IMG/VR virus record: IMGVR_UViG_2778261535_000016
DNA: 2,561 bases
Source of the DNA: a virus
Lineage: Duplodnaviria; Heunggongvirae; Uroviricota; Caudoviricetes
Reading direction: 5' to 3' (one strand)
Under the pieces are notes generated by a model, which was not told where the DNA came from, ran no database searches, and saw nothing but the letters and a program-made list of their open reading frames with translations. The position numbers were made by a program, and so were the translations under genes. This document shows positions 1 to 2,561 of this stretch, piece after piece. Numbering within the stretch: position 1 is the stretch's first letter; every line of letters begins with the position of its first letter.

Positions 1-564
1 GTACCAGATAACAGGCCAACTCAGATTTATGCTGTTTCAGGCTCAATAAACACCTCAGATGGTAGGGAAAAAAGCGACCCGCTAACTACGAGTGAACTCA
101 GTCTGAATATGTCCCCTGGTTATGAAGGTGATGCAATTTTGGATGCATGGGGAGATATCAGGATCGTAGCTTTTCGCTGGCTTGCGGCCGTCAGAGAAAA
201 GGGAGATGGTGCCCGCTGGCATTTTGGTGTCATAGCACAACAGGTAAGAGATACTTTTCTCGCACATGGGGTTGATGGAACCCGGTTTGGTCTTCTCTGT
301 TACGATGAATGGGATGATCAATACGAGCCAGTGATGGCGGTAAGGACGATTACTGAAGTTGTGGATGGTGTTGAAATTGAAAGGGAAGAAGAATACGAAA
401 CAGAAGAGCGAACTCTGGTACGCAAGGCCGGAAATAGGTGGGGGATTCGTGCTGACCAGTGTTTATGGCTTGAGTCTGCTTATTTGCGTAGAAGAATCGA
501 AAAAATAGAGTCACATCTTGCGGAGCTGAATAATTTGCTGAATCCGGAGGGGGGATCTAAGTAG
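1..564 (+). CDS. 3' portion of a larger gene whose 5' end lies outside the window; probable phage tail fiber/tailspike C-terminal domain resembling an S74-type intramolecular chaperone (auto-cleaving) domain
   Basis: Frame 1 is open from base 1 with no stop until TAG at 562-564; the ORF track starts at the first ATG (109) but the frame continues upstream. The translation contains ...FGVIAQQVRD... and a C-terminal ...YLRRRIEKIESHLAELNNLL helix-like segment, a pattern I associate with the chaperone-of-endosialidase (peptidase S74) C-terminal domains of tail fibers. The canonical Ser-Lys dyad cannot be confirmed by eye. An acidic stretch EIEREEEYETEE is present. Confidence 0.55.
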   Translation, partial: VPDNRPTQIYAVSGSINTSDGREKSDPLTTSELSLNMSPGYEGDAILDAWGDIRIVAFRWLAAVREKGDGARWHFGVIAQQVRDTFLAHGVDGTRFGLLCYDEWDDQYEPVMAVRTITEVVDGVEIEREEEYETEERTLVRKAGNRWGIRADQCLWLESAYLRRRIEKIESHLAELNNLLNPEGGSK

Positions 565-740
565 TCTGCTTGCTTATTGCACAGTACGTGAAGCTAATTC
601 AATTGTAACTGAGAGGAACACTAGACCATTTTCTAAACGTAATTTTCATTGCCGTAGAAGGTAGAAATACAGTGCTTTGAGGTAACTATTATTCATAAAT
701 GGTTTATTATGTGTGCGTCTTCAATAGTAAGGAGATTGTT
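565..740 (+). promoter_or_regulatory. AT-rich intergenic region upstream of the lysis cassette; probable site of the lysis-operon promoter and/or upstream terminator (no hexamers confidently assignable)
   Basis: 176 bp non-coding gap between the stop at 562-564 and the first lysis-gene start region. It is visibly more AT-rich than the flanking coding sequence and contains a near-tandem GTAGAA-g-GTAGAA at 654-666. No well-spaced sigma70 -35/-10 pair was found by eye. Confidence 0.3.
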
Positions 741-779
741 ATGCGTAATAAATGGTGTCCATTATGTCAGCTCATCTAA
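741..779 (+). other. 12-codon upstream ORF (MRNKWCPLCQLI) preceded by a consensus Shine-Dalgarno, overlapping the start of the first membrane-protein gene in a different frame
   Basis: AAGGAG at 729-734 followed after a 6-nt spacer by ATG at 741; frame 0 reads 12 codons to TAA at 777-779. The membrane-protein ORF begins at ATG 752 or 764 in frame 2, inside this mini-ORF. Confidence 0.3.
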
Positions 780-1168
780 CCACTGACCATCTAAATCAAT
801 GGCTTAGCATGAGCTCTTTTGCTGCTGTTATCGTAGGCGTTCCGCCAGAAGTGGCGCTCGGTGCTTTGGCTGGCGCGGTGATTTTTGTTACCTCTGCAGT
901 AGAGTACCCCATCCGTCGCCGGGTGCTCCTGTCGATGCTCAGCTTTCTTTGCGGCCTTCTCTTTTACAAACCAGCAGCATCAATTCTTATCGGCATAGCC
1001 AGCCTGATCCCTACCATCACGCAGGACTCTTTTGAAAAAGGGATTGTTTTCTCTGCAGGCGCATTCGTGTCAGCAATTGTCGCTGTGCGTATTGGTATAT
1101 GGCTCTATCACCGTTCCGATAATCCACGCGAGTTAATTCCGGGGAGAAAAGACGATGGTAACGCATGA
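752..1168 (+). CDS. putative holin: small polytopic membrane protein (138 aa, about 4 hydrophobic segments, charged C-terminal tail)
   Basis: Hydrophobic segments at roughly residues 18-50 (interrupted by PPE), 57-71, 75-89 and 97-119, followed by a hydrophilic charged tail [19 protein letters not shown]. GxxxG/small-xxx-small motifs (GALAG, SAGAFVSA) are present. Sits immediately upstream of, and co-oriented with, the endolysin. The start is ambiguous: ATG 752 (MVSIM...) or in-frame ATG 764 (MSAHL...). Confidence 0.6.
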   Translation: MVSIMSAHLTTDHLNQWLSMSSFAAVIVGVPPEVALGALAGAVIFVTSAVEYPIRRRVLLSMLSFLCGLLFYKPAASILIGIASLIPTITQDSFEKGIVFSAGAFVSAIVAVRIGIWLYHRSDNPRELIPGRKDDGNA

Positions 1169-1463
1169 GTTTTTTTTGCTTATCACCAATGCAGTTATTT
1201 GCACTGGCATAGCAATTCGCGTTGTCACATTCCGGCGTAACGGCTCTCAACACAGAAGGTGGGGAGGATGGCTTGCTTATTTCCTGATTGTTGCTGCGGC
1301 CAGTATTCCTGTTCGTGTCGCCTATGCAATCTGGTTACGTACGCCAATGGCTGTGGATTTATCCGAGGTCATTATCAACGCTGTCATGCTAGCTGCGGTT
1401 ATTAAAACGCGCGGTAACGTCGTTCAGATTTTCAAAGTATCGAGGTCTAAACATGGAGATTAA
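1155..1463 (+). CDS. second small membrane protein (102 aa, 2-3 TMDs, basic C-terminus); holin/antiholin-like partner, role unresolved
   Basis: SD-like GGGGAG at 1141-1146 with an 8-nt spacer to ATG 1155. Overlaps the upstream gene by 14 nt and the endolysin start by 11 nt. Hydrophobic segments at about residues 6-24, 39-61 and 69-83, with a basic loop [12 protein letters not shown] and a basic tail [19 protein letters not shown]. Confidence 0.55.
1170..1177 (+). repeat. T8 homopolymer tract at the junction of the two membrane-protein genes (codons 6-8 of the second gene)
   Basis: Directly visible run of eight T at 1170-1177, immediately after the upstream gene's TGA stop (1166-1168), encoding F-F-L in the 1155 frame. 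Confidence 0.9.
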
Positions 1464-2082
1464 ACAATTCCAGCGAGCTGCTGGTATCAGCGAGTCACTG
1501 TCCGCACGCTGGTTCTCGCATATAACGTCTGCGATGAAAGAGTTTGGTATCAGCAAACCAGAAGATCAGGCTATGTTTATTGCTCAGGTCGGGCATGAGT
1601 CTGGAGGCTTCACCCGGTTGCAGGAGAATTTCAACTACAGCGTCAGCGGACTGGCTAACTTTGTTCGGGCTGGGCGTCTCACTCAGGGACAGGCCAACGC
1701 ATTGGGGCGACGCGCAGGCGAACCACCATTGCCACCTGAGCGCCAGAGAGCTATTGCCAATCTGGTGTACAGCAAACGCATGGGGAACAATGCCCCCGGC
1801 GATGGCTGGAATTACCGAGGTCGCGGACTTATCCAGATTACCGGTTTGAATAACTATCGTGACTGCGGAAACGGCTTGAAAGTGGACTTGCTGGAGAATC
1901 CTGAACTGCTGGCGCAGGACGAATACGCGGCTCGTAGCGCGGCGTGGTTCTTTGCCAGCAAAGGATGCATGAAGTATACCGGTGATATTGCACGTGTAAC
2001 TCTGATTATCAATGGTGGCCGGAACGGCATCGACGACCGGCGCGCGCGGTACGTCACTGCCAGTAAGGTGCTGGCTATATGA
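1453..2082 (+). CDS. endolysin, glycoside hydrolase family 19 (chitinase-like lysozyme) type; cytoplasmic, no signal peptide or SAR domain
   Basis: 209-aa product with the GH19 signature [12 protein letters not shown] (Glu49 codon at 1597-1599), a second Glu at position 58 (LQENFNY, codon 1624-1626), and [12 protein letters not shown] and INGG motifs. The N-terminus [16 protein letters not shown] is hydrophilic. GAGG at 1442-1445 lies 7 nt before the ATG. The stop TGA 2080-2082 overlaps the next start as ATGA. Confidence 0.92.
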
Positions 2083-2561
2083 TCTGGGAATTCGTAAAAG
2101 CATATTGGAAACAACTGCTTATCGTGGTGATGCTTGCTGCTCTGTTCATCGTCGGAGTGGTTGCCTGGAATATACACGGCAGTCGCCAGTACGATGCCGG
2201 GTATGCGCAGGCGGAAGAAGACCGCAAAGCCGAAGAAGACAAAGTTCGTCAGTACTACGAACAGGAGAAAGTGACCAATGAACGTGAAGCTCAGCAGAGG
2301 ATCGACCAGGCGCGCAATGATGCTCTTGATGCTGCCGCTCGTGCTGGCAGGTTGCAGCAACAACTCTTTGCCATCCGTGAGCAGCTCAGGCAGTATAACG
2401 CCATTGTCGGCGCTGGGACGTCAGCCGCAGACACCGGAGTTTTGCTTGCCGACGTGCTCAGCAAATCTCTCGAGAGAAACAGACAACTGGCAGAGTATGC
2501 TGACCGGGCAGCCGAAGCCGGAAGAGTCTGCGAAAAACAGTATGACACCCTGACAAGATAG
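2079..2561 (+). CDS. Rz: i-spanin (Rz-like): N-terminal transmembrane anchor plus periplasmic coiled-coil domain
   Basis: 160-aa product with a single N-terminal hydrophobic segment [18 protein letters not shown] (residues about 13-30), then an Ala/Glu/Gln/Arg-rich sequence typical of a coiled coil, and a Cys near the C-terminus (RVCEKQYD). ATG 2079 overlaps the endolysin stop (ATGA). Contains an embedded lipoprotein ORF in the +1 frame. Ends at TAG 2559-2561. Confidence 0.85.
2278..2553 (+). CDS. Rz1: o-spanin (Rz1-like) outer-membrane lipoprotein, entirely embedded in the +1 frame of the i-spanin gene
   Basis: AGGAG at 2263-2267, 10 nt before ATG 2278. Product [26 protein letters not shown]... 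has a basic n-region, hydrophobic h-region and lipobox L-A-G-C (Cys26 codon 2353-2355). Ser at +2 (not Asp) is consistent with outer-membrane sorting. The 66-aa mature part is Pro/Ser-rich with two further Cys (C56, C60). Confidence 0.85.
   Translation: MNVKLSRGSTRRAMMLLMLPLVLAGCSNNSLPSVSSSGSITPLSALGRQPQTPEFCLPTCSANLSRETDNWQSMLTGQPKPEESAKNSMTP

Follow-up and report, generated by a model that had tools for sequence, protein, structure and literature searches.

A highly probable embedded two-component spanin of the DUF2514 (Bcep176) family at the end of an epsilon15/phiV10-type lysis cassette

The last gene in the 2,561-nt stretch of viral DNA analysed here (the window) encloses a second open reading frame (ORF) with the features of a lipoprotein gene. 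This arrangement raises the question of whether the inner frame is a gene under selection or a by-product of the outer one, and, if both proteins are made, what they would do together. The first-pass annotation had read the pair as an embedded two-component spanin, in which an inner-membrane i-spanin (Rz) is encoded by the outer gene and an outer-membrane lipoprotein, the o-spanin (Rz1), by the inner one. This identification is borne out by protein family matches, by orthologues of identical geometry in phages phiV10 and epsilon15, and by the listing of these orthologues in a survey of spanins (PMC6139136). We consider it very probable, with little room for doubt, that positions 2079–2561 encode an embedded two-component spanin orthologous to the Rz/Rz1 pairs of phiV10 and epsilon15 (DUF2514, “Bcep176”); the spanin role itself we infer from architecture and analogy.

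According to the ORF list, the window consists of five forward ORFs in tandem (Table 1). The two holin-like genes overlap each other and come first in the cassette, followed by the GH19 endolysin gene, with Rz/Rz1 last; the ATG of Rz overlaps the stop codon of the endolysin gene (ATGA). These lysis genes are an epsilon15/phiV10-type (Uetakevirus) cassette, with DNA identities of 89% to phiV10 and 83% to epsilon15. The cassette DNA is also 91–95% identical to prophages in ≈10% of complete E. coli genomes, and in one E. coli prophage an identity of ≈92% extends across nearly the whole window. Scans of the window for Rfam families, promoters and terminators, and repeats returned nothing bearing on the spanin finding.

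Table 1. Features of the window, with positions counted from its first base.
Feature	Positions	Strand	Basis
Tail-fibre gene, 3' end	base 1 (open) to 564	+	Peptidase_S74 chaperone domain
Holin-like membrane-protein gene 1	764..1168	+	Phage_holin_8, 5.7e-11; PHROG 198 “holin”
Holin-like membrane-protein gene 2	1155..1463	+	Phage_holin_3_7, 5.1e-27; PHROG 217 “holin”
GH19 endolysin gene	1453..2082	+	Pfam Glyco_hydro_19, 2.3e-9; endolysin in phiV10/epsilon15 annotation
Rz-like i-spanin gene, 160 aa (start ATG 2079; stop TAG 2559–2561)	2079..2561	+	ORF list, DUF2514, PHROG 312
Rz N-terminal transmembrane segment, residues ~13–30	2115..2168	+	Kyte-Doolittle
Predicted break between two long periplasmic helices, Rz 111–115 GAGTS	2409..2423	+	AlphaFold2
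Rz Cys151, sole Cys of Rz, 10 residues from C-terminus	2529..2531	+	sequence
Rz1 Shine-Dalgarno AGGAG	2263–2267	+	10-nt spacer to ATG 2278
TGA closing the +1 frame one codon ahead of the Rz1 ATG	2272..2274	+	sequence
Rz1-like o-spanin gene, 91-aa precursor, 66-aa mature lipoprotein (start ATG 2278; stop TGA 2551–2553)	2278..2553	+	ORF list, PHROG 11621, orthologues
Rz1 lipobox L23-A24-G25-C26, predicted cleavage before Cys26	2344..2355	+	PS00013-type pattern
Rz1 C56-L-P-T-C60 (CxxxC) motif in conserved core	2443..2457	+	sequence, alignment

The outer gene product is matched by Pfam DUF2514 over profile positions 1–160 of 161 (1.4e-45; 155.7 bits against a cut-off of 26) and by PHROG 312, “Rz-like spanin” (8e-60), and its length and position correspond to those of phiV10 p30 and epsilon15 p06. 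A search of the PDB by sequence returned no meaningful relative of Rz, and NCBIfam holds no model for either Rz or Rz1. The hydropathy profile of Rz has a single hydrophobic segment, with a 19-residue Kyte-Doolittle maximum of 2.69 at residues 14–32, and the RefSeq record of the epsilon15 orthologue carries the note “one transmembrane domain”. When Rz was modelled with AlphaFold2 from the single sequence (mean pLDDT 86), it formed a helix from residue 2 to 110 and, after a break, a second helix from residue 116 to 159. This model agrees with the published figures for the orthologous i-spanins of the Bcep176 family, for which coiled-coil segments were called by Pepcoil and a helix content of ≈85% was given (PMC6139136 supplement). 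The single N-terminal transmembrane domain (TMD) and the largely helical periplasmic domain predicted here are the features by which an i-spanin is recognized. The C-terminal Cys pointed out in the first-pass annotation is C151, which is invariant in the alignment of Rz with diverged homologues (14/14).

The inner ORF had been described as lying entirely inside Rz in the +1 frame and ending 8 nt before it, with AGGAG 10 nt ahead of its start, a LAGC lipobox with Ser at +2, and two further Cys residues. All of this was reproduced. The recomputed start is offset by 199 nt from that of Rz, which places Rz1 in the +1 frame, and the gene runs from 0.412 L to 0.983 L, where L is the length of the i-spanin gene, so that its final base lies 8 nt ahead of the final base of Rz. 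The Shine-Dalgarno (SD) sequence, Cys26, Ser27, C56 and C60 were found in the expected places. The protein is matched by PHROG 11621, “Rz-like spanin” (5.6e-41). Its signal passes a PROSITE PS00013-type pattern and its side rules, with Cys26 as the lipobox Cys and K4 and R7 supplying the Lys or Arg within residues 1–7, and the RefSeq record of the phiV10 orthologue, p30a, bears a PS00013 lipid-attachment note. Judged from its sequence, Rz1 would thus carry a lipoprotein signal of the signal-peptidase-II type, LAG/C, without the Asp at +2 that serves as an inner-membrane retention signal. The mature protein had also been called Pro-rich, which applies only in part: Pro is present at 8 of the 66 positions (12%), a modest proportion, and Ser is more frequent (13/66). 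There is no hydrophobic segment besides the signal peptide, and the C-terminus is polar. The single-sequence AlphaFold2 model of Rz1 was mostly coil and of low confidence (pLDDT 51), a weak indication that the mature domain may be largely unstructured.

Both genes are annotated by RefSeq in phiV10 (PhiV10p30/p30a) and in epsilon15 (p06/p07). In these two phages, as in the window, Rz measures 483 nt and Rz1 276 nt, the offset is 199 in the +1 frame, and Rz1 ends 8 nt before the end of Rz; the cassette order, the position of the lipobox, the CLPTC motif and the C-terminal Cys of Rz are shared as well. The amino acid identities to the window are 89% (Rz) and 96% (Rz1) for phiV10, and 88% and 86%, respectively, for epsilon15, with point substitutions as the only differences. 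Kongari et al. (2018) placed epsilon15, phiV10, TL-2011b, SPN1S and their relatives in the “Bcep176” embedded i-/o-spanin families (PMC6139136), and Table S4 of that survey lists epsilon15, phiV10 and TL-2011b with the values “emb, +1, 199, 8, 483 nt, 0.412008, 0.983437”, the same as those computed for the window. Embedded two-component spanins are recognized (Summer 2007; Kongari 2018) by the placement of the inner gene, location in or beside a holin–endolysin cassette, and one or more periplasmic Cys residues that could serve homodimer disulfides. They are further marked by a need for both genes in disrupting the outer membrane, with arrest as spherical cells in Mg2+ on loss of either one, and by contact of Rz with Rz1 via the C-termini. 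Embedded o-spanins typically begin at 0.4–0.5 L and end at 0.9–1.0 L of the i-spanin gene (PMC6139136), and Rz1 falls within both ranges. Rz directly follows the GH19 endolysin and the two holin-like genes; Rz C151 and Rz1 C56 and C60 are present and all invariant; and the profiles matched are DUF2514 and PHROG 312 for the i-spanin and PHROG 11621 for the o-spanin. Since orthologues of the same family and the same geometry, ≈90% identical, have already been annotated and catalogued, the pair was known before this analysis. The evidence supports a real and conserved pair that is a textbook, ordinary spanin, and its significance extends little past correct annotation.

The first-pass annotation had likened the pair to the lambda-type spanins, a description that fits the architecture but not the sequence family. 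In lambda, Rz1 is likewise embedded in the +1 frame of Rz, at ≈0.48–0.87 L compared to 0.41–0.98 L in the window. In both systems the TMD of Rz is N-terminal, the protein comprises two helices plus a linker, and a Cys stands ≈10 residues before the C-terminus in loosely comparable surroundings (a QC close to the end). The Rz1 of lambda is an outer-membrane lipoprotein that lacks Asp at +2, as predicted here. The mature Rz1 of the window is longer than that of lambda (66 vs 40 aa) and contains less Pro (12% vs 25%), and the Cys residues are distributed differently: two in Rz1 (CxxxC) and one in Rz in the window, compared to one in Rz1 and two in Rz in lambda. Neither protein was matched at E ≤ 0.1 by the lambda Pfam families, PF03245 (Phage_lysis) and PF06085 (Rz1), on which lambda's own Rz and Rz1 score 183 and 72 bits. 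Profile comparison with hhalign gave probabilities of 0.5% for Rz and 27.7% for Rz1, and pairwise BLASTP against the lambda proteins gave weak matches (E = 0.004 and 2e-4, as single comparisons). Membership in the lambda families was rejected on the unmatched Pfam models and the profile comparison. The match to DUF2514 and the lack of a match to the lambda Pfam families point to a spanin that would be lambda-like in its working, but outside lambda's family.

Two other spanin types served for comparison. The T4 two-component spanin, PseT.3/PseT.2, is encoded by separate genes, whereas the pair in the window is embedded; the T4 i-spanin has no Cys, whereas Rz has C151; and the sequences are unrelated. 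The T1 protein gp11 likewise has an N-terminal outer-membrane lipoprotein signal and is likewise encoded by the last gene of its lysis cassette, but it is a single protein whose TMD is C-terminal and whose periplasmic part lacks Cys, whereas in the window the TMD is on a separate protein. A unimolecular spanin of the T1 type was considered for Rz1 and discarded, the signal peptide being its sole hydrophobic segment and its C-terminus being polar.

The first-pass annotation had named two findings that would refute its reading, a +1 ORF not conserved in homologous phages and a predicted lack of a signal-peptidase-II site. Neither refuted it: the lipobox rule is passed, and the ORF is conserved. 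We assembled 106 homologous loci, comprising 15 annotated phage or prophage loci (Uetakevirus, Skatevirus, Swiduovirus, Schitoviridae, Eiauvirus and Burkholderia phage Magia; Rz identity 28–98%), 80 IMG/VR contigs, and 11 bacterial genome contigs that were found by a scan with a 6-sequence alignment and extend the set to Oxalobacter and Burkholderia. At every one of the 106 loci, down to an Rz identity of ≈28%, the +1 frame contains an ORF that has its own start codon and encodes an n-region rich in K/R, then a hydrophobic core and a lipobox Cys. The PS00013 rule was passed by 89 of the 91 loci outside the annotated set. The two homologues that failed it, along with eiAU-183 from the annotated set, which escaped a separate and stricter lipobox pattern, were inspected by eye, and the +1 frame of each proved to encode a lipobox of the form LTGC, LAAC or LMGC. 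Six positions of Rz1 (L23, C26, L43, P50, C56 and C60) are invariant in 13 diverged sequences, and among the viral contigs, which supply 36 distinct sequences of mature Rz1, the core is nearly invariant. Within seven Uetakevirus-type sequences, the diversity at third codon positions of Rz drops from 0.276 before the overlap to 0.117 inside it, a 2.4-fold reduction. In five of six distant homologues of the same module type, the shared DNA is better conserved in its Rz1 reading (core, residues 40–72) than in its Rz reading, among them Kp6991 (82% identity for the core, 68% for Rz), swi2 (73% and 59%) and Magia (58% and 38%); Horatius, the sixth, shows hardly any difference (48% and 47%). Conservation across loci, the invariant residues, the drop at third positions and the identities of the core together indicate that the +1 frame is under purifying selection of its own.

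These data bear directly on whether the +1 ORF might simply follow from the composition of Rz, with no functional protein translated from it. Helices rich in Ala, Gln, Arg, Leu and Glu rarely create stops in the +1 frame, and among synonymous shuffles of Rz 13% yielded a +1 ORF with an ATG and at least 91 codons, while 45% yielded an open stretch of at least 92 codons. NCBI PGAP also leaves Rz1 uncalled in E. coli prophages, which is attributable to the known bias of gene callers against embedded genes (PMC6139136). The length of Rz1 is within chance, given the Rz protein, and was accordingly set aside as evidence, which leaves the comparative data as decisive. The complete, rule-passing embedded lipoprotein ORF, by contrast, arose in only 65 of 5000 synonymous shuffles and 14 of 5000 codon-order shuffles (0.3–1.3%), and the other four genes of the window contain no such ORF. 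All 106 loci retain the lipoprotein features, including those at which the overlapping Rz codons specify other residues, the conservation of the +1 core in distant homologues equals or exceeds that of the Rz frame, and third-position variation in Rz is suppressed within the overlap; a compositional by-product is thus so improbable as to be negligible. A separate question is where translation of Rz1 begins. The double Met encoded by ATG-ATG at 2317/2320 (M14/M15) is conserved, GAGGA lies 15 nt upstream of 2317, and a precursor initiated there would be 78 or 77 aa long, its signal peptide reduced to a minimum and the mature lipoprotein unchanged. The 10-nt spacer between AGGAG and ATG 2278 is rather long. 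On the other hand, the n-region of the shorter precursor would have no positive charge, whereas distant homologues all keep a K/R-rich n-region ahead of the hydrophobic core. AGGAG and ATG 2278 are kept in 7/7 aligned Uetakevirus-type sequences, and the curated annotations of phiV10, epsilon15, Skate and Magia take the upstream start. In phiV10 and epsilon15 there is an additional in-frame ATG 14 codons further upstream, to which the +1 frame is open; in the window and in the E. coli prophage of ≈92% identity, the TGA at 2272–2274 closes the frame and rules out such a start. The conserved SD sequence, the need for an n-region and the TGA just upstream lead us to prefer the start at 2278, and initiation at 2317/2320 appears unlikely.

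If both proteins are translated, their joint function can be considered by analogy with the lambda and T4 spanins (PMC6139136). Rz would be anchored in the inner membrane, and Rz1 would be lipidated at Cys26 and delivered to the outer membrane, a destination suggested by the lack of Asp at +2. The C-terminal parts of the two proteins, encoded by shared DNA, would bind each other across the periplasm, and disulfide bonds at Rz C151, at Rz1 C56 and C60, or at both might hold homodimers together. With the peptidoglycan cleared by the action of the holin and the GH19 endolysin, the complexes would collapse and thereby bring about fusion of the inner membrane with the outer one, the step that would complete lysis. 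Other phage lipoproteins, such as Cor, Llp and Bor, have roles outside lysis, and the two proteins could both be real and yet act elsewhere in the envelope on behalf of the prophage, for instance in superinfection exclusion. The Pfam entry for DUF2514 still reads “unknown function”, and in the literature we found no experimental or genetic test of lysis function for any DUF2514/Bcep176 member. Against such a role, the pair always closes a lysis cassette, beside an endolysin or a holin, and does so in phages of unrelated background (Uetakevirus, Skatevirus, Schitoviridae and Burkholderia phages). No other annotated spanin was present in any cassette examined, and both the topology of the partners and the way in which their C-terminal parts co-vary fit what a spanin requires, which makes a non-lytic function very improbable. 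For the spanin, the arrangement of the disulfides allows of more than one interpretation. Intermolecular disulfides through C56 and C60, as put forward in the first-pass annotation, are plausible from the sequence, but with the CxxxC spacing an intramolecular bond would be equally possible. In the latter case, a C56–C60 disulfide would shape the Rz-binding core, and the covalent link of the homodimer would come from Rz C151 alone. The Cys residues are three residues apart and form an invariant pair in all subtypes (CLPTC, CSPTC, CSPNC, CLETC and CLPSC), and Rz C151, also invariant, is placed like lambda Rz C152, which forms a functionally sufficient intermolecular bond (PMC6139136). In T4 PseT.2, two Cys residues serve intra- and intermolecular bonds (PMC6139136), which also speaks for an intramolecular bond here. 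The single Cys of lambda Rz1, however, bonds intermolecularly, and parallel interchain bonds, C56–C56' and C60–C60', fit the sequence equally well; we therefore hold the intramolecular arrangement only as a tentative possibility, though one to be taken seriously.

The spanin family also bears traces of recombination. Phage PAS61 is 93–100% identical to the window until ≈2200, after which the identity falls to 77% in the next 30-nt block and then mostly to 30–60%, and phage seszw departs from Skate just past the codons for the Rz1 signal peptide. In each of these two recombinants, the C-terminal domain of Rz and the mature part of Rz1 have been jointly replaced by a second allelic type, with a CSPTC or CSPNC core. 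This joint swap in natural recombinants lends indirect support to the pairing of the C-terminal parts of Rz and Rz1. In the evolution of the DUF2514/Bcep176 family, the Rz C-terminal domain together with mature Rz1 appears to be exchanged as one module between two allelic types. It is a rather doubtful proposition that the family stands apart from lambda through a disulfide and interaction design of its own (an invariant o-spanin CxxxC staple, RQP..P..C.PTC, with a single C-terminal i-spanin Cys), module swapping and mixed architectures. The invariance of CxxxC, the exchange of the Rz C-terminal/mature Rz1 module and the overlapped Rz1 in two Schitoviridae members are only mildly new. The DUF2514 family would be a reasonable system in which to study how CxxxC and one Rz Cys replace lambda's arrangement.

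Members of the family in Uetakevirus and Skatevirus have Rz1 embedded in Rz, whereas in the Schitoviridae phages FBKp27 and Horatius, which belong to the same Pfam family, Rz1 is overlapped instead of embedded. The 2018 survey stated that no mix of architectures was found within one family (PMC6139136). The naming of these genes in public records also varies: in E. coli prophages, PGAP lists only a “DUF2514 domain-containing protein” and misses the embedded o-spanin. Recovering Rz1 by a scan of the raw sequence was thus the right approach, as automatic pipelines still miss embedded o-spanins. Several phage records name Rz an “endopeptidase” or a “tail protein”.

Among the homologues of the window's spanin genes, we found that Rz1 is overlapped rather than embedded in two Schitoviridae members, Klebsiella phage FBKp27 and Pectobacterium phage Horatius, whose Rz proteins belong to the DUF2514 family. 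In both phages Rz1 retains the RQP..P..CLPTCSKNLSNE.DSW core, and its reading frame extends beyond the Rz stop codon, by 25 nt in FBKp27 and by 22 nt in Horatius. According to the survey of phage spanins by Kongari et al. 2018 (PMC6139136), embedded and overlapped members are mixed in no family. The coordinates of the stretches described here are collected in the table.

The C-terminal domain of Rz and the mature part of Rz1 make up a module that occurs as two allelic types. Type A is recognized by CLPTCS..ETDNW on the Rz1 side, paired with a conserved 11-residue segment, and type B by ESN..Y..A.EA / CSP(T/N)C. Whichever background is considered, Uetakevirus or Skatevirus, the two types are swapped as a whole, and in phage seszw the break point lies directly after the stretch encoding the Rz1 signal peptide.

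The window's Rz1 bears a faint likeness to that of lambda, both in the signal peptide (MML..MLPLV..GC) and near the C-terminus, where NWQSMLTG in the window corresponds to DWQTPLNG in lambda. BLASTP gave an E value of 2e-4 in one single comparison of the two proteins, and hhalign a probability of 27.7%. At the level of sequence, this likeness could reflect either distant homology or convergence.

Both prophage and phage records have an annotation gap for the Rz/Rz1 family. In E. coli prophages, PGAP annotates a "DUF2514 domain-containing protein" only and leaves out Rz1. The product names given to Rz homologues in several GenBank phage records are "endopeptidase", "tail protein", "lysin" or "protein gp55".

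Coordinates of the features and compared stretches
Feature	Locus	Coordinates	Remark
C-terminal end of tail-fibre or tailspike gene	window	1-564	open from base 1; Peptidase_S74 intramolecular chaperone domain
Conserved block	window	700-712	GGTTTATTnTGT
Strongest SD	window	729-734	AAGGAG
Mini-ORF region	window	729-779	MRNKWCPLCQLI, then stop
Two successive holin-like genes	window	764-1463	Phage_holin_8-like, 134 aa; Phage_holin_3_7, 102 aa
Allelic module, compared region	window	about 2200-2561	
Allelic module, compared region	L005 (phage PAS61)	401-898	
Allelic module, compared region	L009 (phage seszw)	380-859	
Rz1, compared stretch	window	2278-2550	
Rz1, compared stretch	L107 (lambda)	1087-1266	
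Rz (DUF2514 member) with overlapped Rz1	L010 (FBKp27)	401-935	
Rz (DUF2514 member) with overlapped Rz1	L013 (Horatius)	344-866	
DUF2514 gene annotated without Rz1	L003 (E. coli prophage)	5046-5528	

The strongest SD of the lysis cassette lies 6 nt upstream of an ATG at position 741, which opens a mini-ORF of only 12 codons. It runs, in another reading frame, across the annotated start of the first holin-like gene (ATG 764), and no SD belonging to that start itself is obvious. Both AAGGAG and ATG 741 were kept in all six aligned relatives, with a mini-ORF of varying length (6 codons in phiV10, 12 in the window and in epsilon15). The mini-ORF may control the first lysis gene, either as a leader ORF or through translational coupling. 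The two holin-like genes overlap by 14 nt; in phiV10, the first is annotated as "membrane protein" and the second as "holin". Judged from the annotations, either of the two may be the holin, and the other may be an antiholin or accessory protein.

Judged from the genome matches, the junction between the tail-fibre gene and the lysis cassette is mosaic, because only 13 of the 564 matching E. coli genomes have both parts together. The conserved block upstream of the cassette was invariant in 6/6 aligned phages. An RNase III processing site is annotated in the matching region of the epsilon15 record.
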